Source: Schmidtea polychroa
Taxonomy: Eukaryota
Assembly: GCA_044892525.1 (NCBI GenBank)
Contig: CM097887.1
Location: forward strand, 111,206,397 to 111,270,396
Direction of reading: 5' to 3'
DNA: 64,000 nt
Below the pieces are notes generated by a model. The model did not search any database. It saw only the letters and a program-made list of their open reading frames with translations, and had not been told where the DNA came from. This document shows positions 23,832-64,000 of the stretch, in pieces (the first letter of the stretch is position 1; each line of letters starts with the position of its first letter). The position numbers and the translations under genes were made by a program.

Positions 23832-25824
23832 GTACTCGACAATCCAGAAAACCGACCAACACTCAGACGACTATTAGGAACAGTTCTATTGACAATTCAT
23901 TCATATAACCGATTTGATTAGTGTATATTTCGGCTCAGCCTTTGGAATCACAGAATTTTTCAAACAATAAGTAAGGATGTATTGCTATTGTAAAATTTGT
24001 TTTCTCAAGGATTAAATATTTTATTATATTAACGTAACGTTTGAATAAAAACTTCTCCATTCGATTTCGATTTTTTAATGATAATATAGTTCGTAAATTA
24101 ATTTAAAGGTTAATGATATATGAATGTTTATGATATGTTTTGTCGTCGAACGTATTGATTGTGATAAAATTATTTTTGAGAAACGTGGAGTTGAGGAGAC
24201 CCACGCCATGGTGTGAGGAGCCTTCGGGAGCTCAGCCGGCGAGTGTGGATCTCTTCAATCACGCAGCTGACGTGGGCCGGAATGTGGGGGTTTCCTCACG
24301 GGTCCGTCGCTGAAGGAAGTAAAATGCTGCAAGCACGAGTTTAAAGTATAGAGGAATGCATTCAAATATTGAAAAGTAGAGCAATCTTAATTGAAAATGA
24401 CTGAGGTGGCTACAAATTCTTATTAGACATCACACTCTGAAATTTCATCTGACATCAGAAATCGTATTCTTGCATCAACCGACACTCTATCTTCTAGTGG
24501 CAAAATACTCTTCTATCAAAACTCACGTCAATAGAGAAACCGAGTACTAATATGTTCATTAAATGTAAAATCATAATATAGGAAGCATAAACGAAGATTT
24601 ATTCAACAAAAATTTTAGTACGAATATATTTTTCAACAAACCCTTTAATTGTTTCATTTCTCCTGAAAATCCACAATAGCGGCAACATGAAGTTCTTTCT
24701 GTAAACGACACTTTCGACCAATATAGGTGGAACTCTTTTGAATGAGTTGCTGTAAATATTCCACGAAATCATAACATCCAAATTGAAAAACGGAGGAAAC
24801 TGCACATCATGAGAATAAATTCCAACGTTCATGCTCGATGAGAACTAATCATAAGTAGCACATTGAATAGCTGAAATAAATCCAACTCGCGGTGTGAGAC
24901 GATCAGCTGCAACCCGTTAACGTAGATAATGAGAAAGCAGACGAGACAAGTCACACGCATTGCTACACATAAATACACACTAACATATGCCGCATGCATT
25001 CTTTTCCCAGTCAGCTAATGACGATGAGAACACAAATTGGAGTACACGCACATGACATAATTATCTCCGATAGATATCTAACTTTCAGATTCATGTTGTT
25101 AATGATTTCTACGAGTGAGCTATGCATTACCGGATGACTGTTATCAATTAGCTAGATTTCACAGATTAATTGCACAAGTAAATTCCATAACAAGAATGAA
25201 TGGATCGATTTTCAGGATAGGAATAAAAATCTAATCATACTCGAATCCTTAAAAATCTAATGGTAGCACAGTGATTGAATATGTTTTTTCGATTTTCATA
25301 TACCAATATGAGTTACGATTTGAGGTAATTAATTTAAGGAGCATTCCCGCGGCACTAGAGAACTTTGTTTTTACGTTTTTAAAGATAAATATCTGTATTC
25401 GAAAAGTTATATGTAAAAATGAACATTAATTATTTAATTATGCAAACATTCTAATGGTTCCTAAACAATTTCTACGAAACCGATAACTCTAACGTTCACT
25501 GGGTCAATACATTTGCGAGTCATCTTTCACCTAAATAGTTGAGAATCTCAGATAATAATAGGTAATAGATATTCTAAGCATAATCATAAAATTTTGGCAA
25601 AGTATTAATCAGATGTTAATTTCTCTTGCAACCCCAAATAGACATCCAAGAATTCACTGAATACAATTATAAAACACTATTTCTAACGGAACCATATCAT
25701 TGACCTTTTATCCATTTTACTTAATTTTTCGAAATTAATCAATGATCATGTCCCATGCTGGTTTAGTAGAAATCGCTGATCTTAATTCTTATTCTGATTG
25801 TTTTTCTTTGTTACAGTTATCAAA

Positions 25825-26567
25825 ATGTTGCCAAGCTCGAAGCCGTCGCTCAAACCCTGTTTCTCCTGTGCCGACAAAAACACCGTAATCCGAGAATTAC
25901 AGGCCCAGATCGGTCGATATAAAAGAAGATCGACGATCTGGAAGGTACATGGTTTAGCCCAGTACAAATGAAGGAGGTACAAAAGAAATTGTACCGCAGC
26001 GAGCATTGTCGCGATGCTTTGATAAGCGAAAGTAGAGCTCAGCGTAGCCTAATCAAAGAGCAGTCCGAAGCTCTACACAAAGTTTACGTTCAAGCCGCGA
26101 CAACCCGAAAGATCGTTAGTATCCCGATTAAAGAAGCGGACAATATCTTCCCCGTCCACCATGAACCTTCATTTAGTTCACCACCCTTATCAAAAAGATC
26201 TTGTCGTGAATGCGTGGAGGCCGACCTCTCCCCTAGGCCAACGGACGTACCTACTCCCGGCACCGGCAAGGTATTGCCTTCAACCACGACGTCCTCAGCA
26301 ATCTTGTCTGCCAACCCTTCGAAACCTAAACGCCGCCAATTATCCAGAGCGGAGCGTAAGAAGCGTCAACGTGAACGAGCGATCGTCAAACAACGGGAAC
26401 TATCTTCCAACCCCCCAAGTACTTCGAATGATCCCCCCGTAACGATCGATCTAACTGTAGGGATCCCAGGGCGAATCATATCTGCCGCTGGTGTGACTTG
26501 GGAGGAGAATGCCTCCGAGTTTTTTGATCTGGATGAGCTATTGGCGGATGCGGAATGGGAGAAGTGA
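25825..26567 (+). pseudogene. LTR-encoded ORF (CxxC, coiled coil, basic patch, acidic tail) with a 1-nt frameshift near 25925
   Basis: MLPSSKPSLKPCFSCADKNTVIRELQAQIGRYKR/IDDLEGTWFSPVQMKE..EHCRDALISESRAQR..EQSEALHKVY aligns with 46284-47045; preceded by a ttacag acceptor. Confidence 0.75.
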
Positions 26568-27151
26568 GAATCGCAACACAATACAACCGTGCAGAGTGTT
26601 AATGGACAAATAAACTATCATGACTCCTTTTCCTCTTAATCTATTTTCCACTAAGTATACTCGTTATATAGTGCCATAATTATCTAGTGTATTATGATAA
26701 TAGAATAAAGAAATTTGTGGGTTATTTCTCGTTGTTGTTTTGATTTAAATAGTTGCGGTAAAGGTTCAAAGTAATGTTCACAAAGTGATTCATAAAGCGA
26801 GAGTAAATTTTGAGTTCGAGAGGCAATAGTCAATTTTGTGTCGAATTGTGGGACAGGGTAGAGAGAGAATCTGATGAGGTAAACAGACGTAAGTCCTTCC
26901 ATCGGCAGTCAGAAAGGGAAGTCGAGGCCTCAGTAAGGAGTAGTCCTAAGGTAGGGGCTCACCTGCTTACTGGAGTTTCGCCGGCATAGCACATTTCCAA
27001 CGTGAAGCAATTCGCGGGTGCTATGTTGGAGGGTAAGTTGTGCGGGGTCCTGCTCCGGGTTGACACGGGCGTATGTAGCGTGACGATATGGGCACGCATC
27101 CCCTAGACAAAGACGTAGATTGAGCAGAGTCAACCGAGCGCTACCCCAGCA

Positions 27152-42473: not shown

Positions 42474-43937
42474 TTTTATTAATATATTTTAGATTGTTTA
42501 GAGTTTAAGTCATATTTATTGATATGTATATTTAAAATTCTCTAACTTCATTGTTTGTTGATTTAAAAGAATATGCATGAATCGTTCTTGTACATGTAGG
42601 TCTCGCTTTCGTTTTGGTTACAATTTTTTCAACTTTTATTTATTTACTGAACTTATTTTTTGTTACCTAAACTAGTTTATTTACATTTTCGTTTTTTTAT
42701 TTTTAGCAAATTTAACAACTATTTAAATTTAAAACTATTAAAAAGCATAAAAACACCTCTTAAGCTGGATATGCTAGAAAGAAGAAAAACCTGTTAAGAT
42801 AGCAAAAGTTCTGGTTTGGTTCAGTTATTAGAGATCAAGATGTTGATAAAATAAGAAAGGCAGGAAAATATGTAAATTTTAAGATTTGAACCAGTAATGC
42901 TTTATCTTCGCTTTCAAATTGGAATGAAACTCAATGTAGAAAACCATCAATCTAACTCAGTTAACAAATTTTTGCATTCAGGCTAAACAATAAAAATGAA
43001 ACATGACTGTATTTTTTTTGTTATTTATTATTTAATTGAATTTTGAGTTCGTCCAATCAAATTCGTTTTAGTCGTATCGGTATATCTCGGATTTTGACGT
43101 ATGTCGTAGTCCTTATTTTTACTTTACAATTCATATAAATTTTACAACTTAAGTCATATTTTATCTTCTTGGCATTGTTACAATGAACAATCGAATTACA
43201 AGATGGATATAAAAGCCACAGGCAAATAAACAGAATTGCCAATGGGTTGAAAAACGTAAAAGAATAATGTAGCGAGAGTAAAAAAAGGAAAATTGAACTT
43301 AGTGATAACTGAATATATTCGAATCGAGCGTACCAGAAAGGAACATCTCCGTTGAAAGAATAATCCCTTCGCAAGGTTATATTGATATTGAAAGGTGTAG
43401 AGCAAAAGAGTTGTTTAAAGTTGTGGTTGTTTCATTAAATAGTGTTGGGCCAAGCTCCGAAGGTGTTGGAAAAACGAACCTAGGAAGGGATAGAGTAAAA
43501 TAAAATAAAAACATATAAAAATACGAGAAACATAGGAGGAAACAAATTAAATATCCAGAAAGAAATTAGAATAAAATTAGAATAACTAAATAAAATAACA
43601 AAACCCCTAAAGGAAAAATAAGACAAGAGGGAAGGCACCTAATAAACGACAGTAAAAGAAAAAAAAATAAAATAGCAGAAAATTTAAGAAAAATGAACAA
43701 AAGTAAAAGAAGAAAAACAAAATAAAAATAAAAAAATCATCCATAAGGCTAATTAAAACAAAAAAGGAAGTTACAATAAAATAGCAACAAAACCACAAGA
43801 AAAACAGATAAAATAATAAAAAATAGGAAAATAAATAAAATAATAATAAAAATAGGAAAAAGTCATTAAAATATACCTGATTACATTAAAAAACATAAAA
43901 ATCATAATAAACAATAATATTACATGCAAGTCGCGTC

Positions 43938-44058
43938 CTGATTGGACGAAAAGTAATATATAAAGAGCGACAAAAATCTGTAGAGTATCATTCTAACCCG
44001 AAACTCTACAGGTAAAATTTTATCCTTTATAATATCATTCTAACCCGAAACTCTACAG
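43938..44058 (+). promoter_or_regulatory. Putative LTR promoter: inverted CCAAT, TATA, Inr-like TCATT, duplicated leader and mini-intron
   Basis: CTGATTGG 43938-43945, TATATAAA 43957-43964, 26-nt direct repeat 43986-44011/44033-44058, GT at 44012. Confidence 0.55.
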
Positions 44059-46283
44059 AAAAGCTAGGAACCACTCACAAGCACAGATTATTGAACCATA
44101 TTCATTTATCGGATAACATATACATTGAACGGAGATCGAATTCAGCTCAGTCGAACGAGTCTATCTAAAGAAAACTTATATTACTTTGATCTAACACCTT
44201 CGGAGATTTTTGGTAAATTATGTTTTAGATTTTAGTATGATGATCTAAATATTTATTATGAATTTAACAAGTCGTTTATAATCCAATAAATTTCATATTT
44301 TAAACGAAGGTGTTGCTTTCTCTCTATGAGGCTGGCGACGGCGTCCTCTGGAATCCGGGTATGATGCAGTTGGGTTTTTCGAACGTCCTACGGAGAGGAA
44401 ATTTACGAATATGAACTCGGGAAATTGAAGTGATAGAACTAGCCCAGGATCCATATGAATTTAGAAACTAAAGTGATTACTTAATGAATACGAGATTTAT
44501 GCTAACCAGAGTCATCATGCCCGGATTTCAAATGTCGTGGTCGCCAGGTGAACATTTATTTAATTGATTTTCTCATAATTCCATTATTTCTATATTGATT
44601 CACTGAATAATTAAATTGTATTGTTGCACATTTATTGAGAATGGAGTTGCGATGAGACGGGTCGAGTCGTCCTTCACACCGGTCCAAGAGCAGTGGGCAG
44701 AGATGCGTACTGCCTTGGGTGGGTTGTGAGGAGCGAGGAAACCATGTGAGATTTAACAAATCAAGTAAATGATTCTTTCATCGAGTGTAATCCACCCATC
44801 TTAGTCGTCGAAAACCATCCAATGCAGAAACTTCTGAGTGACATAGTTTGAGTCAACGATACCTTGGGAACTCCCGGAGGCATACCATTAGAACTATCAT
44901 CAGCCTTGTATCCAATCACGTCATTAATAATCTTTGATTTGGAGCCTTATTCGTCTTGCATTGAGAGAAGCGACTGCTAGAACGTCTGCCGGAAGGAGTT
45001 ATTAATTTCGAGTTTTTACGAGAGATTCTCTGTACTAAGCCCATTTCGTATCTTACAATCTGAAGGTGCTTTGGAAGCTACACCGCCGGGAGGTTAGCGA
45101 ATAGATCCATCGTCTTGCTTATCGTCGACTCCGGGGGGACTTAATCATCAACCGACATCTAGCCGCTGTCATCGATAATAGCCGTTTTAGAGATGAATGT
45201 AAACATCTCTAGATAGTAGATTTAAACACTGGCTATGAGTCCGAAGGAAACGGTCGCCAGCGACATCGGGTGGGCGTAGTAGACTGCCGGGAAATCGGTT
45301 GATAAGATATCTGAAGCCTCAGTCACGAGCGAACGAGTTGACAGTTTTTATCTCAAAACCAATTAGTGGAGCAAAATCTAAATATGGAATCGATCTTATC
45401 TAGTAGATTCGCAATTTAGCCCACACAATTAGATTCACGAGTTTTCTATGACACCCTCTTAGATTTCCACCTATCTAGAAAGTCAGCCAGCGATGTCATG
45501 TCTAGTGTGCAGATAGTGGATAAATTTATCTCACGATTGTGTAACGGTAGACCAGGAGATGGTAGACTACATGTCCAATCCGACAGTGAGATTACGTCAT
45601 ACTGAATAGTAGAATGTTCTACCTAGTCCACGACCACAGGCTGAAGATAAATCATACAATGCATGCATACGAACAGACCTGACAACATCTGCTAGCCTAC
45701 CTCCAGGGTAAAACTAATACACCACTACTCACAAACAAGCGTCGTTATGACGACATTTATGGCGCAAGATTTAAGATGATCAAATAGCAAATTATGATAA
45801 GACTTAAATTGAATTTTGCGGTTCTTTTATGAAGCCGATCACGGCGGTTTAAAACCCCAATAGTCACCCGTCATACCGAACTATGTTTTTGTGACTTCAC
45901 GAGTGCGAAATTTTACGAGTATAGTAGGACGGGGAGTGGGAATGCTATTACTAGGGAAGGATAATTATAACAAACTCGACTGTGGTAAATTAATAAAAGC
46001 ACATTAAATAAAAATGGCCAATTTCGGACAACAAACATAAATTCAAAGTTAGGATAAATGTATTATTTTGAGGAAGCCCGTTTTCTTTTTTTTTTTTTTT
46101 TCTCTATCAGTGTGGATGCTTGCAGACAAATGAGTGTAAATGTTGACCAGTGATATGGGTAAGTGGGTCATTGTCGAGTAGGATGATTGGAAATAGGGTA
46201 AAAATTGTAGTCAAAATTTGGAAACGACACTCCAACGATTTTTTTTTTAAACTCTACAATTAACAAAACGTCTTGATCTTTAG

Positions 46284-47045
46284 ATGCCTGCTTCAACCGC
46301 TACGAACAAGGATCTCCGTCCCTGCTTCTCCTGCGCAGATAAAAACGCAGACATAGCACAACTCCACTCATACATTGGGGCACTGAAAAAGAGAATTGAT
46401 CTCTATGAAGGCACGTGGTTCTCCCCGCCACAGATGAAGGAGGAGCGCAGTAAAATTCTTCGGTTGGAACATTGCCGGGACAGCCTCCTAGAGGAGAGTC
46501 GCTGTCAAAGACTGACGATCAAGGCGCAATCGGAAGCCCTCCACAAGGTCTACACGGAGGCAGAATTGGCCAAACGGGTACGAGAATTTCCCGTCTTGGA
46601 GGCCAGCAATGTTTTTCCCACTCACCACCAAAGTACTTCCACCGCTACAACCAGTTGTCTGGGGCACGGCTCCTATCTGCCGCCTGTTCCAGCACCGGCC
46701 TTATATAGTTGTCAGCCGCCGGTAGGTGGTCCATCCGACCCTATCTTGGCTCCAGTTTTAGTGACATCAGTTACAGCACCCGATGCGGACAACCATCAAC
46801 CACAGCGTAAAAGAAAACGGCCGACCCGAGCCGCCAAAAATCAAAGACGTCGAGATGCAATCGCGGCTCTCGAGGCGTCGTTATCTGTGGCCAAGTCTTC
46901 TCTGGAGAAGTTATCGTCAATACCCTCTACCCCCACAAAGGAGATATTCCGGGTGATCTCGCCCGAAGGGGTCCAGCTCGTGCGAGACCGTCGGTTACCG
47001 GTCGACATCGACGAGATGATCGCCGAAGGGGAAGTTTTCCCATAA
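46284..47045 (+). CDS. LTR-encoded protein of unknown function, 253 aa (CxxC, coiled coil, basic NLS-like patch, acidic C-terminus)
   Basis: Intact ORF directly after a ctttag acceptor; homologous to 25825-26567. Confidence 0.75.
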   Translation: MPASTATNKDLRPCFSCADKNADIAQLHSYIGALKKRIDLYEGTWFSPPQMKEERSKILRLEHCRDSLLEESRCQRLTIKAQSEALHKVYTEAELAKRVREFPVLEASNVFPTHHQSTSTATTSCLGHGSYLPPVPAPALYSCQPPVGGPSDPILAPVLVTSVTAPDADNHQPQRKRKRPTRAAKNQRRRDAIAALEASLSVAKSSLEKLSSIPSTPTKEIFRVISPEGVQLVRDRRLPVDIDEMIAEGEVFP

Positions 47046-47586
47046 TTGGACGTGTCGTTGACCCATCTCTCATTCCACGCGATCAAGCTCAACAATCTTT
47101 ATAAACGACTTAGATGATGCGTGTTGTGTACTCTCCTACGTGTTGTGATCGGAAATTTGTGTTCATATGTATCCTCAATTTCATTAATATAATCATAGTA
47201 TTCGTTGTGTTGTCCCGTAAAAGTTATAGAGTGATGAGTTATGACTGGACGAATGGATTGGAATGATCATTGGAGAATGTGGGTCGTCCCCTTGGACCAG
47301 GGTCGTACCGAGAATACATGACGAGTAGGGGTAAGACCTTCTTAGGCACCGAGGAACCTGAACTGAGAGGGGGTCCGTAGTAGTCCTAAGGCAGGGGCTC
47401 ACCTGCGGACCAACTCCGACCCGTGTGAGCAGTACCAACGTGGGTAGATCATCACGGGCTCACATGAGGGAATATTTGTAAATCATGCGGGTTATGTGGG
47501 GGAAGGGCCCCGAGCTAAAGGAACATGATGCCAGCTGCACTACGAATGTCCGTTTGACTCCTCCCATATACGCCCAACATGATTTT

Positions 47587-47604
47587 TGGGGGCTCAGCCG
47601 GGAT
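47587..47604 (+). promoter_or_regulatory. Primer-binding site complementary to tRNA-Pro
   Basis: TGGGGGCTCAGCCGGGAT, 7 nt after the LTR end; compare the MLV tRNA-Pro PBS TGGGGGCTCGTCCGGGAT. Confidence 0.85.
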
Positions 47605-48088
47605 TCTACACTATCAATGCGATTTGTCGATCACCCATTATTGTGTTATGATGTGTTAGATTTAACAATTTAATTAAGGATGATTAAAAACGGAATCGGG
47701 ACTGAAACAAATCGATATTATAGTATAATAGAATGATGATACGAACTGTTTGTGTTTGAAGAGAGCATGTATGAATAAAAACGAACCTAAATGAGTTTGA
47801 ATGAAAATAAGGTTGAATGAATGTGAAAGAGTGCGGTGAGAAAAGAAAACGGGAATCACTTATTTTGTTTAGTTTAATTTATTAAATTAAAAAGAGGGAT
47901 GAAAGGAAGTAATGATAATAAAAGTAAATGATTAAAGTGGAAAATATGACGAGGGAATTCCAAGGATGGAATAAAATACAAAAGTTAGAAACATTAACAA
48001 TAAAAGTCAAACGAAAATTAAATACCAACCTGATAATATCATTAATAATACCCGCAAAACAAATAATAACAACACATTTTTTTTAGAT

Positions 48089-48568
48089 ATGTCGGAAGCT
48101 AGAAAACATCTACAACAGCTAAGCAGATTCATCGACATAGAAAACGATTCTCTAAAGACGTTAAGAGAAAAACTGCAACAAATAGAGACCCTAGAACAAC
48201 AACGCCACGATGCACCTCTGATATCAAAACAAAATTATTTAACCAATAAACTGGGAGCAACAAACACCGATACCGACTTGTCTACCCATTACCAATGGAT
48301 GCAGCAACGACTCGACGACCCCGCTCTGAACATCGAATATGTGAGAATACGCGAACAAGTAAAAACTCTGTCTCAGAGAATACGAACATCGATAGTAGAG
48401 AAAGCAGCGGTCTTAAGAACTTGTAACATTTGTAAGACGCGACCTGCCAAAATTCTAATTCTACCGTGTGGACACCTTAGCCATTGTGACGAATGCGCCG
48501 TCAGTTTAACGCATTGTTCTTTATGTGTATGTGTGATAAAGGAGAAGCACACGATTTACTTCAGTTAG
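48089..48568 (+). CDS. Coiled-coil plus C-terminal C3HC4 RING protein (IAP/MDM2-type RING, no BIR), 159 aa
   Basis: CNICKTRPAKILILPCGHLSHCDECAVSLTHCSLCVCVIKEKHTIYFS*; polypyrimidine-AG acceptor just before the ATG. Confidence 0.85.
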   Translation: MSEARKHLQQLSRFIDIENDSLKTLREKLQQIETLEQQRHDAPLISKQNYLTNKLGATNTDTDLSTHYQWMQQRLDDPALNIEYVRIREQVKTLSQRIRTSIVEKAAVLRTCNICKTRPAKILILPCGHLSHCDECAVSLTHCSLCVCVIKEKHTIYFS

Positions 48569-49475: not shown

Positions 49476-50857
49476 AAGGCCTAAAGTAATAGTGAGATAG
49501 CATTTAAGCTACAAGTTGATAACATTTAAATTACTAGTGAGATAGAATATTAAAGATAGCTAGAAGCAAATTGAGTTTGAAATATGGAATTTGAATTTAG
49601 AAAGGATCAAACGAGCTCGTAAAAGATGATAGTAAAATTCTTTTAGTAAAGAAGGAGAAACGGAAAAGGAAAATGAATTAGGAATAATAGAAACAAAGAA
49701 TAAGTATGAATAGATGATGAATCAAAGAGGAAATAATTAATTAATTAAAGGGGATCCCAGGTAAGTAGACAAAAGTTCTACAGAATTTTTTTGGTTTAAA
49801 CCGGTTAAACGAATTTTGTTTTGGTTCCAGAGCAGAACCGAGTAAAAGGAAATAGAGATGAAAGATTAAATGAATAAGCGGAACCGCGTAAAAGGATTAA
49901 GGAAAATATGGGGGGTAATAAGCAGTAACTGACAACGACCTATCGATATTATAAATGCTAACTATAGATAATTTATACGACTATATAGATAATTGTTACT
50001 ACCCCCAAATAGATAATTAAAAATCGACGAAAACTATGGGTTGATGGGTAATTATATTCCGCGGAGAAGTGTATGAGGGGAAATGAAGAGAAGCATAACA
50101 GAGGCCCAAAAATGGTGTCTGTGCTTGAATGTGGTAAAAAGGAATGATTGATTCGTGTAAGCAAATGCAACACGATATCATTTTTTCATTGTAGATACCC
50201 ATCCAACCAAGTCAATTCAGAACCAGCTCAAAAGGAAGCCAGAGAATATACAAACAACCCAGGAAAAGCAATTCAGAACCCGCATAAAGAAAAACAAGCC
50301 AATCTGAACACGGAGGACGACAACGACATCTTTACCTACGACGGAATTATCGAAATACCTAGCATCGACGTAATAGCAGCAGTCAATCAAGGACTCAGAT
50401 ATCTCCTCCGGAAATCAGCCGAGAAATTACGCGGAATATTCCTCGAAGGAAACACTATCAGAACCAAACTTGACCAATTCAGCAGCCGCTAACCGTAGAA
50501 AAATCCACGTGAAAAGACAGAAAAGAGTAAGAAAGAATCACGGATAAACCCAACCTTAGATCTTCAAGTAAGCCAGGAGACGTATTATTTTCAGGAGACG
50601 AATTAGATCAACTCAAAAGAGGACGATCATTTAGGCAGCAGAGAGGAATATCACAAGGAGCAAAAAGACCCCACAAAACACCGATATACGATCAAGAAAA
50701 CCCCACAGCCGGACATACGCCCAGTCGATCTAGAAGTAGAGAAAGCCTATCCGATATAACAAACAACCTAACCGGGTCAACAGAAGAATTATCCGTCCAT
50801 AGTTTAGCTACATCGCTGGAAAATTTAAAAGGAATAATAGAGTTTCAAGAACCAATC

Positions 50858-53800
50858 ATGACGAATGTGGTAAAAACCGACGAATATAAAGAAAAATTTA
50901 GAGGCGAACCATTCAACGGGAATGCGAACAAGTTGGCAACGTTCATAACAAATTTTGAAGTCTATATCGATGTGTGTGGATGGACATCAGAAGCAATTAG
51001 CAAACGGATGCCGTTGTTTTTATGTGATAGCGCATTAGAAGTGTATCTAGAAGCAAAAGAAAGAAATACGAAGTTAGACAATTGGGAAAGCATCAAAACA
51101 TTTTTGAGAAAAACATTCGGAGCCAGCAAACCAATAAATCAAGCCCTAGGAGAATTAGCAAGTAGAAAATAAAGAGCAAATGAATCCATAACGTTGTATG
51201 CGAGTGAATTGCGAAGATTGGCAAAGAAGGCCATGAACGGAAACTTGCCGGAGGAAAATTTAATTGGCTATTTCATAGAAGGACTGCACCGAGAAGAGGT
51301 AAGGGCCTCGGTGGGATGTCAAATGTGTAAAACACTAGAGGAAGCCATAGATTGGGCCACGAGATGCGAACTCCACCTCCCGGCACAAATGAATGTCATG
51401 CAAGAGGAAGGAAGAATCGCAACAGCAACGGTAAAAACTGAAAATGGAGAGAACAGCAATCATGAACCAAAAATGAATCAGTTTATACCCGGTGCGCATC
51501 AAATTTTCAAACCACCGCAAGGACGATCAAATGGGAATAACAGTGAACGCAACAACCCGAATAATGGGAATAATTTTAATAATCGACGAAACACGAACGA
51601 TAACAAACAATGCCGAACATGCGGTAAACCAGGACATTGGGATAGAGATTGTTACCGAAACGCAAATTGCAATAGGTGTGGACGACGGGGACACACGGAA
51701 AATATATGCCAATTGAGAGGATGTTTTAATTGCGGTCAACCAGGTCATATCTCAAGAGACTGTCGAGAAAGGAGCCAACAACAACGACCACCCCAGCGAA
51801 ATAATAACTATGCACCAAATCCGCAACGAAAAAGTAATCCTAGTGAGGGAAAGCAAATGAATGTGATGCAAGAAATTTCACAAATGAAGCAGATGATGCA
51901 ACAAATGATGAGACCGAGACAAGAGCAAGTACCACAACAAACCCAGAATATACGCATGATGAGGAGCACCGAGAATCTTAACAATTATGAAGTGCAACAA
52001 CATGCACAAGAATGGCAAAGACTACAAGCTGAAGAAGAGAGGATAAAAAGAGAGCGAATTCAGCAGCGACAAGAACAACCATTACGAATAAATATGATGA
52101 GAATGGTAAGGGAGATAAAAGAGCAATATTGTTACAATTACGGTAAAAATCCAAGAGTTGTACCTATGAGCGAACCAGAGAAACCGAAAGAAACAATTCC
52201 AGCAGCAAAAAAGGAAAATTCAACAACATCGCTAAAAGGAAATCAGAGAATTCAGAAAATATTTTGGAAAAAGATAAAAGATAAAATCGAAAGAGAAAAT
52301 GAGAAAACAAAAACAGAAGCAGAAGCGGAAAATAACGAAAATGAAAAACAGATTAATCATCTAAATCATGATATGATACGAGGATTAGACTCAGAGGAGC
52401 TAACGATACTCGAGAACAAAAAATTAAAGAAAGTACCAAGAATGAGAAATTTACGAATTAATATGATGAGGACAACAAAGAAGGTGTTGTCAACAGATGA
52501 CGATGAGGATTATGTGAGTAGCCTTGGTGGAGAAATGTTACAGTTAAATGAAAATATCGACCAACTAAGAGAAAAGATCGGAGCAGATGAGGATGAAAGT
52601 GAAAGCGACGTGACAAGCGAAAGCGAAGACGAGAATATCGAAATGAAATTGAGAAAAGAAAGAGAAGAAGCGATAAAACAAGTAAAGGAAATACTTCCAG
52701 TGGTGGTAAGAAACCAGGAATTCATTGACATCATACCATACAGACGCTTCACACAAAGGATAATGAAACTAGAAAGAAACGAAAAAGATCTAATACCAAA
52801 CGAGGAGAAAGCGATAATAAAGAAGTATATGGAAAAAATGAAACAAGCGGAGACAACACGCTATGTAATAAAAATCGGAACGAGCAAAGGACTCGAGAGA
52901 ATATGGATAAAAAGTGCAGTTACAGACGATCTCTTCGATTGGATAAGAGAACATTTGGGCAGCTCGAGAAAGAAAGAATACCTGTATCAATATCAAGGAG
53001 AACAAATCAAACCAGACATGCACCTAATAGATGCATTGATCTGGCCAGGAGAAACTCAAATATTGAAACTGCATAAAGAGAAGCAACCAGCAAATATTCA
53101 CGAATGGGCTAAAGACGCCAAGGCCGAGTATGACTTTAACATCAAGCTGAAGCTGGAACAAATAAAACAATGCACCTTGCGACGAAATCTAGATAAATTA
53201 ATCAAACAAATCCAAGAACAAGTTGAAGATAACTGGGATTTGCTCATAACAAGACGAACTGCAGACATGCATGAACTAATGGGCCGACTGCGAGATACAG
53301 AACTGCTCCGAATGAGTGATTGGAGAACCATAAATTTGATCCACAAATATGGAAGGTTGAAAGAAACGCAACCGCAGAAATTGGAAATAACCATATGGTT
53401 ACCAAACGAGGAGAAACGACGAATAAAGATGAGTAATCAGAGTACGGTGGATGACTTAGTAACCAAGATAAACCAAGAGATAACGGAAAAAGTACGAAGC
53501 GAGAGCAGCGATGGTATGATAGATGACGTAGTCATGATGTACGATAAAATAATACTACGGGCTGAAGACGATACCTCGTTAAGTGAAATGGGAATGTGGG
53601 ATAATCATCAAATCATCAGAATATTGCCCATGGACGAATTCCGAACAAGAGATGTAACATACCAGAAAGAAATACGAGACAGGATGAAAACGCTATATCA
53701 AAAATCAGTAGAGATAATTGAAATTCATCAACAGTGGCTAAAAGAAAAAGAGCTTCAAGGAAAAATAAAGAAACTAAGTGTTAGATCCTGCAGACGAACC

Positions 53801-55615
53801 CCATGGGAAAGGATTTGGAATGCGGAAAACAAAGAATGGGAAATCAGGAAAGGGATTTTCGTGGAAACAGACATTGGTGAGATAGAAAGCGAATCAGAAG
53901 AAGAGGAAGATGAACCTCCAAAATACGAAGAGGACGAAATAAAATCGACATCGGACGACGAAAGCGAAACGGATGTTACATCAGAAAGTGAAACGGAAAC
54001 CAGATATATTCATGCGATGAGAAAGAAAGAACGCGAATATGCCGATATGGACAGCGAAGAAGCGATGGAAGCTCGAGAACGAGAAGAGAAGGAAAGATAT
54101 AAACAATTAGGTGATATCTTAGCAACGGGAGCAAAAAATCAAAAACGTCAAGTAATAGCATTGGCTAACATCATCCTAAAGACATCAGAGAATATCCACA
54201 ATCTAAGAGAAATGGCGAAAGCGATTGAGGAATACCGACAATATAACGAATGGTACCCAGAACAGCTAGAACAAATTATTAGGAAATGGAGAAACCAAGA
54301 ATGGGCACAAGATACCCAGGAAAGGTATCGTATCCGAGTCAAGTATCCCGACAAAAGCATTGAGGATACAGAAGTACATCCAACAACAAAGATCAGAGAG
54401 TTAAAAAAGAAATTAGCATACGAAACTCCATTTCACCTACAACTATTCGGAAAATCGTTGGATGATAATGCAGATGTCGGAATAACACCCATGAGATTGG
54501 GGGAGATCAATGTATTGACAATGGCAGAAACATTGGGAAAACCGATTAAAAGGAAGAGCAAATCCAGTAAACCTACGAAAGGTAGCTTGAGTACACCAAG
54601 CCCTAACAAAGTGGCGAGTAAATCGAATGAAACCGAGGAAATCGAGGAAATTATATTGGAAGACAGCGATGAAGGAGCTGGAGAAAGATCACCAATTCTG
54701 GTAAGATGGCCGACAGGAGCCGAAATATGGACAACAAGCCAACCATCAACTAGCTATCAGCAGCCAAATAAGCTAAGTATCGAGGAGATTATCGATAATA
54801 CAACAGAAACCGAAACCGACGAACAATTCCAACGACAGAAAGGACCAACGAAAGCAACACCAGAAGGTCAAACGGACAAAATAATAGACGAATGGAACGA
54901 ATGGCTGAGAAACAACGATAGCTCATTGCCAAGAACGGATAACGAGAGAAACCCGAATTATGAAAATACAAGGGAAGCCGGAACAATGATGGAGAAACGG
55001 GCAAAAGGGAGACCCAAGAAGCAAGGAGAAAAACCGGAATTTAAAACCAGAGAACAGTTGAAACAAGAACAAGGACAAGTCAGACTAGAAAAACTGGATA
55101 AAATAGTGTGGGACTTAAAAGAAGCTCAACCAACAATCGAAAGAGGCGAAAAATGGATACGGGAGCTAGTAAAAGATATGCTAATAATAACGAACCCACA
55201 ATTGAGACGGTTATGGCAACGAAAAGTAGCAAGCGTAGATGCCAGGCAGCTATGGAATACAATATCCGGAATAATTCCGAAATTAATCAAAGAGAAGACA
55301 AAAACCACTAAAACCGATTGGGAAGAGACAAGAAGAGTAATTGAACAATTAACTTTAAACGCAAACGACGACGAACATTATTTAGTAGTATTAACGTATC
55401 TAATGTACAATTTGATGGGATTAGCAGCAAGGAAAATACCTAACAAACAATTCGCAAATCATGTAGAAATGACCGTTACAATCATTGAAAATACAATCGA
55501 ACCACATATTATCCGCGCCGGTGGGTGGAAAAGACTCATACAAGCGCCACGAAAAAACGAGCAAGAGAGATCAATGCAAATTCGGTTGAAGAAATTGCTA
55601 AACGAGCTGGAATGA
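50858..55615 (+). CDS. gag: Extended Gag: capsid, 3 CCHC knuckles, 3 ubiquitin-like domains, C-terminal Bcl-2-like domain; one internal TAA (51170-51172)
   Basis: EPFNG..F..NFE..W, RK*RANESITLYASELRRLA (typical RKQ..ES motif), CRTCGKPGHWDRDC, CNRCGRRGHTENIC, CFNCGQPGHISRDC; ORFs 50858 and 51194 share one frame. Confidence 0.88.
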
Positions 55616-55666
55616 GAATTGCCATTGAAAGACCCAGCCAGCAGAAAAGCGTCGATTAATTCACTA

Positions 55667-57560
55667 ATGATGACCATGATGATATGGATGCTCTGCACCA
55701 GTGGAGCCGCGGGATTTACCATTTACGACTGTGACAATTCGATAATAGGAGAAAGATACTCCCTGAGAGATATAGAGGAATGTAGACAGGCATCTCCGAA
55801 TAAATTAGATATAGTAAAAAAGAAAGTCTCCTATCACGTATACCAAGAATCAGATTTCATTAGAACGCAAGCTAGAGAATGCGTAGTATCGAAGAAAGTG
55901 TTGGCATACTACTGTGGACAATACTCATATTCAACCCTTATATTACCGGGATTAGATAAAGAAATAGTACCTATACAACGGGAAGACTGTAAAGAACTTT
56001 TTAGAACCGGAGCGATGAGAATCAGGGATGGAGTAACCATACACGGACAAAGCGGAATGATCAAGACGGAAAGTATCTATGTAGCCGGACGAGTAAAATC
56101 AACTGATGGATCATGTAACGGAGGCACATATACGATCAGAGGAGAAGTGATCTCGGGAGTAGTAGTAATTGAGTCCTACACAGTGGAGTTGAAGGAATAC
56201 GAAGCACAATTCGACGCAAACAACTATCAAATGAAAACCAACCCAGCATGCAGAGCTACGGAAAACGTGTGTAGAACGGGAATTTCGACTATAATATATG
56301 AAGCTAACACCCAAAAATGCCGACTCCAATTGTTAAAAAGTGCTCTATTCAATGAAGTAAAAGGAGAAATTTACGAAAACGAGGATGACGATGAAGAGAA
56401 TGGAAACGTAAGGATGCGAAATGGGAAACCAGTCCCGCCATCCCCCAAAGAAAAGAGACTCACAACCCAAAAAACACCAACGGCATTAATTACAGATGAT
56501 CCGGACATCGGCATGAGATTCATTAGAGAAAAAGAGACCACCAAATGTGACAGCATAGTATATCGGACGAACTACGCAGGTATCTACATGTCAAGGCAAG
56601 TAATAGACCGAGCAGTGGGAAAGGTAGCAACAGAGGACGTAAAATTGTACCTGTACGCTAATAACAAAATGGACTTTTTATTTCATCGAGGACAAACGAC
56701 AATGCAAAAAGTGTATTACGATCTTATACAAAATGACTGTTCATTGAATAAAGAGATACTAAAAACAAAATTAGCTATCGCAATAACACACCCAGATAAC
56801 ACAATGCCATCACTCCCGTTACCGGATGGACATTTTGGTAGAATGGTGGGAGAGGTAATGTATACATATGCATGTACCAAGACATTTGCGCGACTGCCAA
56901 GAAAGCCCACAATTCCACCAGGGAAATGTGCAAACGAATTAGAAATTAGCTACAAAGGGCGGAACAGATTCGTTCAACCAGTCACTCGAATTATGAACCC
57001 AATTGGATTTTATCCGAACACCTTTAACTGTTCAAATGCATACGGACCGTTATATGAAAAACCCGATGGGAAATGGATAATGTTACCGGTAAAAACCGAA
57101 GTACAAGAACCTAAAAAGTTTGGATTAATAGAACTCGCAACAGAGCAAGACTTCAAACCAATTGATGTGTCAAAAGCGGGTATGTACTCACCAGAGGATT
57201 TAGAAACAGCACGACTAAACGTACTATTCCCAGCAAGGCGAGAATCCATTCTATCGAATATGGTTACCATAACTGGGGGAACGAATTTCCAGTCAGGCCC
57301 CAATTACGAACTATTATTGTCACCCGATCATTTTCAACAAGCCACGTCAAACATGATGAAAGCAATGTGGGGAAGATTTCTAGTGTTCGGTCAAATGATG
57401 GCAGGAATATTGGGAATCATCTTAATTATTCAGATTGTCAGGGTGATATTGACTCAAATGTTAGCGTGTTTTGATATCTATAAGAGAGAAAAGAAAGTAA
57501 ATTGGAAGTTGATAGTAGGTTTTCTACCATTTTTGGCAAAAACAATGGTGTTACACGGTC
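55667..57560 (+). CDS. env: Envelope-like class III fusion glycoprotein (chuvirus G / herpes gB-like), N-terminal part of ORF 55619-60301
   Basis: Signal-like MMTMMIWMLCTSGAAG, then IYDC..YSLRDIEEC..Q..C.V..YCG.YS..C..AGR..GSCNGG..VVV Cys pattern; TM FLVFGQMMAGILGIILIIQIVRVIL. Confidence 0.75.
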
Positions 57561-58009
57561 ATTCTAAAGATATACACAGAATAAAACGATTAATCAAAAT
57601 ACTGACAAAAATAAAAGGGACCGACGAAGAAGTTGGCAGACGATTTCGGAAAACAATGTATGATGAGGCAACGAGAGCGCAACTAAAAAGGAACAAACCA
57701 AAATTCCTGGACAGATTTAGAAATCGGTCAAACAGCAGCGATAGCGATGATGGCGACAACGGGAATGACAAATACCCATATCCAAGTAGAAACCCGAATG
57801 AAAAGCCAATAGAAACAGCGCCATATTGGGAGAAAGAAAAAACAAATACCTGGATAGCCAACGGAAGTTATATACCACCAGATATCGTTGGACAACAAAC
57901 AGCTTTGACCATGACACAAAATATGTATCCACAGTTACCAAGTCAACCAGGGATGAACTATATGCCAACCCGAAGAACGAAAAGCGTAGACCAAGCGGAT
58001 GACGTAAGA

Positions 58010-61000
58010 ACGATAGCAGTGATGAGTTCACCAGGAGGCGCGGCAGTAACAGTCATGATCCAAATCAACGGGAAAGAGACAAGCGCAATGATAGATACCG
58101 GAGCAAATGTATCAGCAATAGCAATCAACCAAATACCCAGTAAATGTTGGAAAGACATCGAACAAACAACTATCCATATCATCGCATGCAGTAAAGAAAC
58201 CGTAGACGTAGTAGGAAGATGGTGGACTACGTTAAGATATCAAGATAACGAAATTGAAACGTATCTAGCGGTGATACCCAAACTGAGTGAACCATGTATA
58301 ATCGGAACGGATTTAATGCCAGAATTGTTCAAGGAAGTAGTAATCGATTTAACAACAATGTGTCTAAAGGACAAAACGGGTAGAATATGCAAGATGAACG
58401 CAATAATTAGATGTCCGGAGAAAATAATTGTACCAGCAAAATCACAGATGATATGTCAAATAAAAGTGGATGCAGGAATGGAAGGAGAAGTCATTTTTGA
58501 GCCAAGCAGATCATTCGAAAAACGACGAGAATTACCATTAGCAAGAGAAATAATAACAATAAATGAAGACGGGGAAATACCAATCAACATCACAAATTTC
58601 GAGGAAGAAGATAAAATCATATATGAAAATGAAAGATTGGGTAGATTGACACCCATGATAGACATCGAATTACCAAAAATCACCAACGAAACAACGAAAG
58701 TCGGCGAATTATGGATAATTGACAGCACCTTGCTAACGGAAAAAGAAAAGGAAAGACTTCAACAATTATTGATAGAATATAAAGATATATTCGCAATTTC
58801 GGATTTAGATTTGGGAGCATGCGATGTTACATTACACGCAATACCATTAATAGACGAAACTCCAATCGCACTACGTCCATACAAACTAGCAGAGAAGCAA
58901 AAAGAGATAGCCGAAGCAGAAGTACAAAAAATGCTAGATGCACAAGTGATCGAACCAAGTTGTTCGCCATGGCAATTTCCAGTAGTCATGGTGAAGAAAA
59001 AAGATGGTACTCAGAGATTCTGTATCGATTATCGGAAATTAAATGCAGTAACAAAAAGAGACACATACCCGTTACCAGACATCAATGAGATGTTACTTAT
59101 GTTACAGGGGGCCGCATATTTTACATCTTTGGATCTGAAAAGCGGATATTGGCAGATCAAAGTCAAGGAGGAAGACAAAGAGAAAACAGCATTCACATTG
59201 GGCCGAGATCTATACCAATTCAGGAAAATGCCATTCGGACTGACCAATGCCCCAGCATCATTCCAGAGATGTATGAATTTTGTCACACATGGGATCAAGC
59301 AGTGTATGGTATATATTGATGATTTATTAATATATTCAGCAACGTTCGAACAACATTTGGAAGACATTAGAAACGTGTTCATCCGATTACGACAATGGAA
59401 ATTGAAACTCAAACCATCCAAATGTGATTGGGCAAAAGAAAAAGTTACGTTCTTAGGACACATAGTGTCAGCAAAAGGCAAAGAACCAGATCCAAGAAAC
59501 ATAGAAAAAATAAAAACATGTCCAGCACCAAAAACTGTCACCCAAGTTCAAGAATTTCTCGGATTATGCGGATATTATCGAAAATTCATCAAAAACTATG
59601 CAGGTATTGCGAAACCAATACAGGAATTAGTGAGAAAGGATATTTCATTTATTTGGGGTGCAGAACAACAAAAAGCGTTTGAGACATTGCGAGATAAATT
59701 GATTGAAGCCCCAATACTGGTACATCCTGATTTCAAGAAACCGTTCTTATTAGCAACAGATGCAAGTGGATATGCAGCCGGAGCAATATTAGGACAACTA
59801 GATGAAGAAGGAAAAGAAAGAGTGATTGGATACTACAGCAGAACGTTTAAAAAGCATGAGAAAAACTATTCCGTAACCGAGAGAGAAGCGTTAGCAATTA
59901 TACAAGCGATTAAACATTTTCGATATTTGTTGTGGGGACACGAAATATGTATCACAACAGATCATCAACCACTAGTATGGCTTGGCCAACACAAAGAAGC
60001 TTCAAGTAGATTGATGCGATGGGCAATGCAGTTACAAGAATATTCACCGTTCATAAAATTCAAAGCGGGAAGAGCGAATGCCAATGCGGATTGTATGTCC
60101 AGATTTATCTTTCCAGATTTAGTAGATCACGAAATGCAACGAATATGTCTGATGGTGGCAGAGGATTTGGATTTTTGCCAATTACGGAAAGACCAACAAG
60201 AGGATACAGAGTTGAAGCAAATCATTGAATATGTGAAAACAGGGAAAGCAGAGGTATATGAGAAAGATCAAAAATTGAAGGAGCATATGGATAAACATTG
60301 ACATCGATATATTATCGAGAAAGACTGGTTGTTGATAATGGATGGAGAAAAAAGACTGATGTGCATCCCCGAGAATAGACGTAAAGAGCTGCTAACACAA
60401 TACCATGACGGAAGACTCGGAGGACATATGTCATCTAAAAAGACGTTGGCACGAATGAAACAAAAGTATTTTTGGCCTACATTGACCGAGGATGTAACGG
60501 AATGGGTGAAAAATTGCATAACTTGCGCAACCAGAAAAAACACGGGAACCAAATGGAAGGCACCATTAAAGCCAATGCCAGTACCAGCAGAACCAATGAC
60601 CATGATATCAATGGACGTGGTCGGTCCACTACCAGAATCAGATAGAGGAAATATATATATATTGGTAATCACAGATTATTTGACAAAATTCCCCGAAGCA
60701 TTCGCAATGGCAGATCAGAAAGCAAGAACAATCGCGAAAATACTAGTAGAGGAGATATGCTGTCGATATGGAACACCAAAACAGATATTAACTGACCAAG
60801 GAACAAATTTCATGAGCGAAATAATGAGCGAAGTCACTAACTACTTCAAGATCGCAAAATTAAGAACATCACCGTACCATCCACAAACTAATGGTATGAC
60901 AGAAAGATTCAATGGAACACTGATTCAAATGTTATCAAATTATGTCGATCGTCATCAACGCGACTGGGACGAGTATATAAAATTATGTTTAATGGCTTAC

Positions 61001-62482
61001 AGAATGTCGATTCACGCGTCCACAAAGATGAGTCCGTTCAAGTTGATGTACGGCAGAGAATGCAATATGCCAATGGATTTGGAGTATCAGCCACCAATAT
61101 CACAGTATATGGAAATAGACGATTATGTAACCAAGTTCAAGGAAAGAATGCAGGAAATCTGGGAAACTGCAGGATTGAATATAAAATTTTATCAAGAAAG
61201 TTACAAAGATCTACATGATAGAAAGAAAAACGTCAAACAGCATACGTTTCAAACAGGCGATTGGGTGATGATCGAAACACCAGAATTAGTTCCAGGAACC
61301 ACCAAAAAATTACAACGAAACGGTAAAGGTCCGTATGAGATCCTATTCATCGGAGAAACCAATGTAAGAGTACGATTGGTAAACAACCCCTTCACGAGGC
61401 CAATATATGTAAATGTGGCACGATGTAAGCCAATACCGAAAACAGCCACCAGCCAGCCGGAAGGGCGAACATTAACAACAAGATCACAAACATATAGAAT
61501 AAATATGTTACAGCAGATAAACGAACCAACAGGTAACCGATTGGGGTTACAACCATCAGAAGCCGAGAAAATCATAAAGGAAGTGAAAGCTAAAATGCCC
61601 GGATGGGCAGAAGACAGATTAGATTTTGAGATATTGGGAGGTCTGCTAACAATGATCGAAAATTATGCAAACCGAGAAAGGACACACCCATTACTCAGGG
61701 TAGTAAAAAGTCAATGGCCTATATTATTTACGATCACAGACCATTATGGAGATACACCGCTGCACAAACTTTTAAAGGTCGGGAATAATGAACAAATACT
61801 GGAAACGATCGAAGCATTTCGCGATTGTAACGTTTCAACAGATCAAGAAAATAACCAAGGTTACACTCCACTAATGATAGCAGCCAATCGGGATAAAGCT
61901 AAAGATATTATCATCGCATTACTTGAAACTGGGTCAAAGATAACCACACAAGACCACAACCAGAAAAATGCACTACATCATGCAATCGAAGGGAAAAGTA
62001 CGGAAGCCTTCATAATCTTAATAGATCTATTATCATATGAGGATAATAGGGAGATAGGAAACATGTATGACGGGTTATTAACTGGAATCAAAGAGAAATT
62101 AATAACAATTACTGGAATACTAATTGCATGGAGGAACCCGATCAAAAACGATTATATGGTAGATATAAACGAAACATTTACCAAAGGAGAAAATACCTTG
62201 ATGAGGGAAGCGATGAGAGGACATCACCTATTCGAAATTCCAAATCAACTACTACAACGTGGCATAAAATTTTCAAATCACAAAGACGAACAACTAATCA
62301 GAAAACGAATTACCAACTTCGAAAAAGCTATATCTCAATTTACCGATAAAGTACAAGTAAAATTTTGGGAAACCGTGAGTGTATTATATATGATGGAGAA
62401 TATGAACAACATTCGAGAAAACTACCTAAGTATTATTCAAGTGCTTACGGCGGAAGAACGCATTAACAGTTCAAACAAGTAA
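58010..62482 (+). CDS. pol: Pol: aspartic protease, RT, RNase H, integrase, then ankyrin repeats; one internal TGA (60299-60301)
   Basis: IDTGA (58094), YIDD (59312), TDAS/EREALA/TDHQPL, H..H..CxxC, MDVVG/TDQG/TERFN (DDE), GPY (61328), GDTPLH/GYTPLM/KNALHHA; ORFs 55619 and 60329 share one frame. Confidence 0.93.
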
Positions 62483-64000
62483 AAGATAAAAATAAAGAAA
62501 GTAAAAACAAGAGAGTCTGAGGAACAAGTCGATCAAATAATAACCGATATAGCAACAACAAGTAAACCAAAGATAATAAACTCAGACCAGGAGATAATAA
62601 TACGCAAAGCCAAAGAGGTGTTCTTTGAAGAAATGCAAGATCTATCCGATGAAGCGATACTAGCAAAAATAACAAAAACAGTACACACCTACGCAAGAGA
62701 CCAGACCACAAATCTAGACATAGAAAAAATAAAAACATTTATACCACTAGCATTCACCTTACCAACAAAAGACTCAAGAACACCATTACAACAAGCCATT
62801 TTAGCAGCAAATGAAAACAGAGCAATAACCATCATAAGAATCCTTGGAGACTTCGGAGAAGAATCTAATGCAAAAAATGAACAAGGAGAAACAGCAATAA
62901 TGTATGCAGCCATAACAAATATACACCCGAAAACATTACATATACTACATCGATCGGGATCAAGACTGGACGAAATATCAAACGAAGGAAATTCTACCAT
63001 GGATTGGGCAACCATACAACCAAACTTGGAAATGATTAGATTCATTTGTAAAAATGCTACAAGAACTGAGGTAGAAAATATCTGTAAAAACACGTCACAG
63101 TTCCAATGGAACACGATACGGATGAACTTAGAAGCCATGAAGTTATTGCTAACATGGAAAATACCGCAAAGCAATAAATATGCAATAAATATAAATGAGT
63201 TCTACGAAAACGGAGAAAATGCTATGGTTAAAAATACACTAACAAAAGGAGGAACTCCGAAAATCATAATGATCGTATTGAACAGAGAAGACCTCAAATT
63301 CACGCAAAATCTAAACGAACAAAAGCGGATTGGAAAACATCGCCGTATACAATTGAGAGAACTGGTAAAAGAATGGAATAGAAAGAGACATGTAGCAACA
63401 GGCAGAAAAGAGTTTGAATTCGAGGCAAAATTAGCAAGGAATAGAGTGTTAACGGCATATCGCAGATTATTGAACGACATAAATGTCGAGGACGACATTT
63501 CAAACGATAGCGGGGGAGATAAAGACGATAAAGACGACGATGATAATGAACAAGGTCGAAACGGGAATGGAGAGAAAGAGAAATCAGAGGAAAATAATCA
63601 AGGGAATAACGACTCAGGTATAAAAAAGGAGGAAAATAAACCGGGAAGCCGAACAAAGGAAGAGGAAAAGACGAATAATGGGAAACAGAGGGTATGCCCA
63701 CTTTTTACCAACAAGGAAATGGAAACAAATATGATGGTAATGATACTCATACTAACAATGATAGAAATGATAACAGCCCACGGTGGAATGAGAACGATAA
63801 AAGAAGCCAAGGAAACGGAAAACAAAGACAACAAGGAGAAGGAACTAAAGCAAGAAAAGAAGAAGCAAGTACGAGAGCAACAATGGGATTTAAAAGAAGA
63901 ATGGGATCTAAAAGAAAGATGCATACTAGGAAGATGTATGTCGAGAGCATATCGGAGACTAGTATTAATAAATGAAGATACAGAACCAATAACGGAAGTA
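62483..64000 (+). CDS. Continuation of the same frame: further ankyrin repeats, acidic/low-complexity region and a hydrophobic segment; open to the window end
   Basis: 506 stop-free codons after TAA 62480-62482: SRTPLQQAI, NEQGETAIMYAA, NEGNSTMDWA, MMVMILILTMIEMI. Absent from the ORF track because it has no stop in the window. Confidence 0.8.

Follow-up and report, generated by a model that had tools for sequence, protein, structure and literature searches.

A conserved gene inside the long terminal repeats of Burro-like gypsy elements of Schmidtea polychroa, with the build of a nuclear regulator

LTRs are regarded as non-coding sequences, with solo LTRs viewed as scars of enhancer or promoter type. 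In the 64,000-nucleotide stretch of Schmidtea polychroa DNA analysed here (the window; contig CM097887.1, positions 111,206,397 to 111,270,396), a conserved open reading frame lies within an LTR and 3' of that LTR's own promoter, which raises the questions of whether it is a gene and, if so, what its product does. An earlier reading of the DNA letters (the sequence-only reading) had proposed a transcriptional transactivator that even solo LTRs would keep and could express.

The host element and its LTR-resident gene

The frame is carried by the 5' LTR (43443..47579, plus strand; 4,137 bp, TG...CA) of a family-A, Burro-like gypsy element. The 3' twin lies 26,425 bp downstream, beyond the window, and is likewise 4,137 bp long with 0 mismatches to the 5' LTR; the element totals 30,562 bp and has a 4-bp target duplication at its ends. 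The primer-binding site (47587..47604, plus strand), which we take to be tRNA-Pro-like, has 1,058 exact sites in the own genome of the window. Straight after the 5' LTR lies a RING-finger ORF (47975..48568, plus strand) found in families A, B and C, and four tandem 72-73-nt repeats are located between this ORF and gag (49184-49476). A single long frame (50531..64000, plus strand) encodes gag, zinc knuckles, a fusion-glycoprotein env of Monjiviricetes type, PR, RT, RH, IN and ankyrin, and is followed by TRAF/MATH ORFs. This frame contains in-frame stops at 51170, 55613, 60299 and 62480 and no frameshifts; four stops are odd for so young an insertion, given the identical LTRs. Programmed read-through of the pol stops was discarded, the one stop checked being private to the window copy and unique in the genome.

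The element has the ~30 kb size, the multi-kb LTRs, the env in frame between gag and PR-RT-RH-IN and the ankyrin and TRAF/MATH cargo of a Burro-like gypsy element. Burro/GYPSM1 has been described as a giant gypsy of ~30 kb with 4-5 kb LTRs, internal domains and accessory ORFs (PMC6431247), and the elements studied here resemble the accessible part of that description in size, LTR length, position of env between gag and pol, ankyrin and TRAF/MATH, as well as in the presence of a BIR in one family. They differ from it in carrying a gene inside the LTR, where the accessible text names internal domains and ORFs only. No BIR was found among the scanned ORFs of the window element, the BIR-RING (B-IAP) gene being the mark of Burro1 proper. 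A BIR-bearing family C, with a 5.4-kb LTR, has a homologue of the LTR gene that was found by a profile of families A and B (E 1e-7), and is probably Burro1. A location of B-IAP inside the LTR was rejected; that gene is internal to the element.

A second LTR in the window is a solo LTR of family B (23362..27151, plus strand) with its own 4-bp target duplication, and the bounds previously read for both LTRs were confirmed. It sits in, and interrupts, the polB of a Maverick/Polinton-like element (20840-38928) with long inverted repeats, polB and an A32-like ATPase. Elsewhere in the window, a 518-aa open frame (5483-7039) has no Pfam match. A comparison of one pair of family A and B pol regions (55616-62482 against L116) shows RT-RH to be 98.7% identical at the amino acid level with pS 0.54, closer at synonymous sites than the LTR gene is among A subfamilies (pS 0.65). 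For this pair, the sequences suggest that LTR and RING modules may have been swapped onto common pol backbones.

The LTR-resident gene (46284..47045, plus strand) encodes 253 aa, is intact in both identical LTRs and has a TAG directly 5' of its ATG. Its product comprises, all on the plus strand, a conserved core (aa 10-116; 46311..46631) made of a CxxC, a helix, a TWFSP kink and a long helix; a basic patch that continues as a helix (aa 175-191; 46806..46856), with a counterpart in every family; and an acidic-hydrophobic tail motif (aa 240-248; 47001..47027), restricted to families A and B. The family-B copy in the solo LTR (25825..26567, plus strand) is frameshifted in an A-rich run near 25920-25925: the frame of its ATG at 25825 stops after 48 codons and the remainder of the gene is found in another frame (25923-26567), so that the first common motif and the later ones lie in different frames. 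The proposal that both LTRs hold an ORF behind a splice acceptor is thus upheld for the open frame at 46284-47045 and for the solo acceptor, which ends at 25816, but not for the solo frame itself; family-B relatives of this copy are intact. Every motif listed as common to the two LTR proteins is present. Furthermore, proteins are indeed more alike than the surrounding DNA, with blastn yielding short matches only, the best of 28 bp in the hairpin near the LTR 3' end, whereas intact A and B proteins are 38% identical (E 3e-48).

Selection and spread of the gene

The own genome contains at least 150 matches each for families A and B, mostly open frames of ~250 aa. From these, 20 A and 20 B loci spanning the identity range were taken, together with the window copy (A n=21, B n=20), and Nei-Gojobori estimates were made for pairs with pS of at least 0.10 (201/210 A, 183/190 B). 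At a pS of ~0.65, dN/dS was found to be 0.026 (A) and 0.048 (B) for core aa 12-113, 0.07 (A) and 0.10 (B) for the basic region aa 174-200, and 0.23 (A) and 0.22 (B) for the linker, all approximate values because pairs are non-independent and dS is near saturation. The selection suspected from the protein likeness is hence borne out across copies, and is strongly purifying. Since the protein had served to pick the loci, the estimate was checked in two ways: dN/dS was 0.14 (A) and 0.16 (B) for residues beyond the query region, while four A copies picked by primer site gave, with the window copy, 0.065. The family-C homologue has a dN/dS of 0.108. Among 18 diverged A LTRs, three blocks only can be aligned to the window, corresponding to the promoter, the ORF and a 3' block; the 2.3 kb between promoter and ORF are mostly unalignable.

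A chance or passenger ORF devoid of protein function would be consistent with the lack of a splice joint in the available contigs, the broken state of 18/30 motif-picked LTRs (see below) and the existence of gene-less derivatives. Such an ORF does not account for dN/dS of 0.03-0.11 at near-saturated synonymous sites in three families, for flanks that cannot be aligned, or for homologues elsewhere. The codon-level pattern refutes this explanation, which we consider extremely improbable, and it is virtually certain that the LTR gene is real and selected.

A non-coding hairpin motif near the LTR 3' end provides a means of sampling LTRs by something other than the ORF. It has 1,071 exact sites for families A and B in the genome, and intactness was scored in the first 30 of these 1,071 LTRs: at least part of the ORF is present in 29/30, the ORF being intact in 12/30 and broken in 18/30. 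Given 1,071 motif sites and an intact ORF in 12/30, the genome probably holds several hundred intact copies. No partner LTR was seen for 22/30, of which 7/22 are intact, with solo status defined by partner absence alone. The claim that solo LTRs can keep the gene therefore holds for these seven solo-like LTRs, but not for the broken window solo copy or for most of the sampled solo-like copies, which are decaying. As broken copies prevail in the sample, it is on replicating lineages that selection acts, with inserted copies left to decay. Comparison of the 5' and 3' LTR genes in 17 pairs revealed 5 synonymous and 4 non-synonymous differences, too few for a test of post-insertion selection.

When 30 elements were picked by primer site, 7 A, 3 B and 11 C elements with ORFs were obtained, along with 9 gene-less derivatives. 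Among shortened derivatives with the same primer site (L209-L218, G000:C1) are family D, whose LTR is 1.6 kb long, and a C-type with an LTR of 5.1 kb. In the single LTR measured per type no ATG ORF exceeds 62 aa, and a gag-like ORF only was seen where these derivatives were inspected. Older, decayed A-like lineages (L219-L243) are 31-42% identical to an outside homologue, with core, basic patch and acidic tail still visible.

The family-C homologue has neither CxxC nor linker nor acidic tail, and the CxxC was accordingly dropped as a universal feature. Family-C LTRs carry a second gene, ORF-X (L159:3852-4214 and relatives), of ~121 aa and with a dN/dS of 0.19. ORF-X ends in an AT-hook-like motif, PF02178 being matched weakly by 11/17 members (best E 0.008). 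No ORF-X homologue was found in A or B LTRs, the word-indexed protein search gave no useful result for it, and the Atlas gave no match.

A three-family core profile run against 1.84 billion proteins returned 19 at E<=0.001, and the core motif was recognised on reading in 17/19; P0011 and P0015 were dropped as generic coiled coils. The one outside homologue checked reaches no more than 42% identity with any sequence of the own genome, hence the family extends to other genomes. Most of P0002-P0019 carry fusions to host domains of unrelated kinds, among them SNF, L21, actin and PTP, and the outside homologues are probably chimeric gene models that captured an LTR exon. Among metagenome contigs, 102 pattern matches were obtained, of which 0 were confirmed.

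Predicted promoter, leader and splicing

The putative promoter of the window LTR (43938..43964, plus strand) consists of an inverted CCAAT box (43938-43945) and a TATA box (43957-43964), a pair that recurs in diverged A and B LTRs. It is followed by a predicted 25-nt leader exon (43987..44011, plus strand) with a GT donor at 44012, and a predicted 2,272-nt intron (44012..46283, plus strand) leads from this leader to the ORF acceptor. The solo LTR has corresponding plus-strand signals, with a TATA box at 23719-23726, the leader repeat at 23750-23774 and 23801-23825, and the acceptor at 25816. In A and B LTRs whose fetched stretch reached that far, the 25-nt leader and CAG/GT donor are located ~0.5-0.6 kb in, and the ORF lies 2.0-2.4 kb downstream of the conserved TATA (~2.3 kb in the window, the start site being predicted). 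A YAG directly 5' of the ATG is present in 21/21 A copies, against a per-position background of 0.03 and with the preceding 37 nt 42% alike; in B, the YAG is found 4-11 nt 5' of the ATG in 19/20 copies, and this variable distance indicates that the B ATG is the start. An AATAAA lies 117-143 nt 3' of the stop in 17/20 B copies. The poly(A) signal is less consistent in A and C than in B, that of A not being conserved. Leader, donor and acceptor are thus conserved at the sequence level, and a single LTR probably forms an entire spliced transcription unit.

Family C provides the best sequence evidence for splicing. Its leader bears an ATG and is 31, 34, 37, 40 or 43 nt long (phase 1) in 19/21 leader copies (24 examined), and its downstream ORFs have phase-1 acceptors in 17/17 and 22/23 cases. 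ORF-X and the gene homologue have this leader in common by way of alternative phase-1 acceptors; since it invariably ends in A before the GT, an ATG would arise at the second junction as well. No splice joint was found in contigs of five sequencing runs, whose RNA status was guessed and which, as contigs, cannot show absence; two contigs run through the acceptor without a splice, as expected of genomic RNA or DNA. Searches with two junction patterns yielded no spliced retro-copies.

The leader is repeated ~47-51 nt downstream, with copy 2 ending in CAG. In the window, this creates a predicted 47-nt mini-intron (44012..44058, plus strand) that ends in copy 2 (44034-44058). Copies 1 and 2 are identical in 18/19 pattern-matching LTRs (41 examined), with 10 variants between LTRs, and some LTRs have a single leader copy. 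We infer that the same donor could remove the mini-intron in genomic RNA, whereupon strand transfer would rewrite copy 2 from copy 1. If so, the concerted leader copies would be indirect evidence of donor use. Furthermore, by letting genomic RNA keep the large intron, the mini-intron would lessen the need for a Rev-like factor at the 44012 donor, though not at a second donor at 47331.

The placement of the gene also bears on its proposed analogy with MMTV sag, HIV nef and foamy bel. In these genes the overlap is with U3, 5' of the start site. The present ORF resembles them in lying within or overlapping an LTR, but the analogy fails on position, the ORF being located ~2.3 kb downstream of the LTR TATA and not in U3, with a predicted leader and intron of its own. 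Being 3' of the LTR's own TATA and leader, the gene is placed in R/U5, and one LTR would suffice to express it. Lone LTRs could hence express the gene, because each LTR is its own predicted spliced unit.

The predicted protein, a candidate RNA target and possible roles

AlphaFold2 predicts helices at residues 16-42, 49-101, 182-211 and 242-247, with a kink at TWFSP and a disordered linker (mean pLDDT 62). The core (aa 10-116) is predicted to form a parallel, in-register homodimeric coiled coil, scoring 0.61 against 0.02 for the best control, with pLDDT of at least 84 and an agreement between runs of at least 97% of contacts. The mark used was reached by 21/30 solved homodimers and 0/23 single chains from microbes, and by 17/29 pairs and 0/30 single chains from eukaryotes. 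Among eukaryotic pairs without a solved relative 1/7 reached it, and coiled coils may score generically.

Only the core and the basic helix are common to A, B, C and the outside homologues, likeness of the basic patch being judged by eye and charge. A 20-mer after the core has a net charge of +9 to +10 in all families. The Arg share of the basic helix is 0.46-0.61 in A, B and C and reaches 1.0 outside, the 20-mer being all Arg without Lys in 3/9 scored outside proteins; Lys makes up 40-55% of the patch in A, B and C. In A and B, a disordered linker of 60 aa separates the dimer from the basic helix. The acidic tail is present in A 21/21, B 18/20 and C 0/21, the last 20 residues of the protein having a net charge of -4.3 (A) and -6.3 (B), and a SIM-like motif is found in B 20/20, in none of A or C and in 4/9 outside proteins. 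The outside proteins also contain acidic stretches (6/9) and PPxY (3/9). A class-1a/1b export-signal pattern outside the coiled coils is conserved in none of the families A, B and C; the tails of 3/9 outside proteins, which are chimeric models, do contain it.

No name could be attached to this protein by comparison. Pfam gave no match, REV included, for the gene ORFs of either window LTR; a weak REV match below the cut-off (E 0.0013), maybe compositional, was obtained for 1/19 profile matches. The word-indexed protein search yielded nothing useful for the single protein or, at longer lengths, the core alignment. The best Atlas neighbour (0.85) has no name, Foldseek against viral structures gave 0 matches at E<=0.001 for the pLDDT-62 model, and the PDB sequence search returned generic coiled coils only, with no match for two basic patches, that of the window included. 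These four resources (Pfam, Atlas, Foldseek viral, PDB) also revealed no recognisable DNA-binding domain. bZIP proteins have an invariant Asn-x7-Arg spacing in register with the zipper. A bZIP assignment was rejected, as no Asn-x7-Arg basic region was seen on reading, Pfam found no bZIP and the Atlas bZIP neighbour (0.76) is below the usable range. The structure-prediction check proposed earlier thus leaves a predicted coiled-coil dimer core with a basic helix, without a fold match.

The hairpin (47372..47411, plus strand) is the sole long stretch of matching DNA that A and B LTRs have in common and lies ~170-200 nt before the LTR end. It contains a CAC bulge and covaries, and is a candidate response element or packaging signal. 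Its 13 pairs are formed to 97% across 33 copies, and double changes number 38; this level was reached by 0/500 shuffles, in a test that relatedness of copies can inflate, and slid controls are 30-57% paired. Rfam gave no match. A nearly invariant GTAAG lies 5' of the hairpin (47331..47336, plus strand) and constitutes the second donor-like site. On the minus strand, the invariant bulge-side sequence (47395-47406) has the form of a strong splice donor; it resembles the U1 5' end. A version of the hairpin is kept by a gene-less family-D derivative, while family C has a different sequence at this position. That gene-less derivatives keep the hairpin fits an action of the gene product in trans.

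The basic patch and predicted dimer core, found in a selected gene, agree with the nuclear-regulator-like build that had been proposed, and the gene product is likely a nuclear regulator. As all families keep the dimer and the basic helix, and gene-less derivatives keep the cis RNA block, we favour, tentatively, an RNA-docking, trans-acting regulator of full-length RNA akin to Rev and CERV. According to this model, transcription would start ~30 nt 3' of the TATA box and a short leader would be spliced over 2-4 kb of LTR to the ORF, making every LTR, solo or paired, a whole transcription unit. The product would form a parallel homodimer via aa 10-116, as modelled, and the basic helix would serve as an RNA-binding motif of the arginine-rich type, doubling as nuclear signal. 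With its two basic helices, the dimer would attach to RNA of the element itself and increase the yield of full-length RNA in trans. The likeliest target of the basic helix would be the bulged hairpin beside the second donor, where binding could keep genomic RNA unspliced and aid its accumulation or nuclear exit, as for Rev and CERV. The acidic tail and SIM-like motif of A and B would be added host-binding modules, possibly activating. Against this RNA-level role, Gag may recognise the hairpin as a packaging signal, the Lys-rich basic patch may rather suit a nuclear signal, and the REV match may be compositional.

A close rival is an activator of the LTR promoter, Tas/Tax-like or, if RNA-tethered, Tat-like, whose basic helices dock at the LTR while the tail recruits co-activators. 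We regard this as possible, though doubtful. It draws on the tail motif in A 21/21 and B 18/20 with its negative charge, the SIM-like motif of B, the acidic stretches outside and the AT-hook-like end of ORF-X, as well as on the divergence of the gene in step with the promoter (38% identity between A and B, where RT-RH is at 98.7%). However, the tail is absent from 21/21 family-C copies, the bZIP spacing and any recognised DNA-binding domain are missing, and the linker parts dimer from basic helix in A and B. Since family C has no tail, a function common to all families cannot depend on it, and a transactivator deduced from the acidic tail does not stand as stated. An RNA-level role fits the parts common to all families at least as well, and the two readings are not mutually exclusive.

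Two further roles are unlikely. An anti-silencing or host-modulating nuclear decoy, which would bind SUMO- or chromatin-silencing proteins and de-repress the element indirectly, is in line with the SIM-like motif (B 20/20, outside 4/9) and PPxY (3/9), the RING, TRAF/MATH and, in family C, BIR genes of the element, and the fast divergence between families; Burro elements are PIWI-silenced according to the part of the source accessible (PMC8532177). It leaves the conserved basic helix unexplained, the SIM is absent in A and C, and the core is almost frozen within families with no sign of an arms race. Slightly less probable again is a replication cofactor, an RNA/DNA chaperone or particle protein aiding the copying or transfer of the long LTR strand. 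A coiled coil with a basic helix is also the build of nucleic-acid chaperones, ~3.5 kb of LTR lie downstream of the start site, and the leader repeat suggests strand transfer of an unusual kind; but Gag already has zinc knuckles, and nuclear-type motifs and an early spliced position better suit a regulator.

Known systems offer partial counterparts. HIV Rev, HTLV Rex and HERV-K Rec are early spliced products with oligomerising helices, an arginine-rich helix and a structured cis element. The LTR protein may resemble them in its predicted dimer helices, basic helix, candidate hairpin and predicted spliced mRNA, but has no conserved export signal and no REV match in the window protein, and is coded inside the LTR. 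Tas, Tax and Tat genes are internal or near the 3' end. The LTR protein resembles foamy Tas, HTLV Tax and HIV Tat in being small, nuclear-type and family-specific with an acidic-hydrophobic tail (A, B), yet its tail is not universal and no sequence or fold relation to them was found in Pfam, the protein search, Atlas, Foldseek viral or PDB. CERV of C. elegans Cer1 is a gypsy accessory protein that is nuclear, is translated from a spliced mRNA, contains a leucine zipper along with a basic nuclear signal, and is required for the export of genomic RNA, as given in the accessible part of its description (PMC10309623). Likened by that description, both are gypsy accessory proteins with a coiled coil (here predicted) and a basic helix; CERV is large and three-domain with a zipper common with Gag, whereas the LTR protein is small, wholly inside the LTR and without a globular domain.

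The gene is real, sits at an unusual location and belongs to an apparently undescribed protein family; it represents a variant among the accessory regulators already known from complex retroelements. In the literature searched no gene inside Burro LTRs was found, although figures or supplements of the original Burro and 2026 Burro1 reports may mark ORFs. Joining these strands gives a more speculative proposal, that Burro LTRs could be self-contained regulatory mini-genomes, a Tat/Rev-like two-gene circuit outside retroviruses. One promoter and leader would feed alternative acceptors to yield dimeric RNA-binding regulators (in family C, an AT-hook protein too), a cap-proximal mini-intron, rebuilt at each strand transfer, would choose between genomic RNA and regulator mRNA, and whole LTR modules would be swapped onto near-identical pol backbones. 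If true, the regulator could be provided in trans and genome-wide by intact solo LTRs in their hundreds. The gene offers a specific, RNAi-accessible handle on RNA control by 30-kb elements. The Burro family has been tied to stem-cell survival (as cited in the accessible part of PMC13465017). For annotators, the strong acceptor appears to have drawn the LTR exon into unrelated host gene models.
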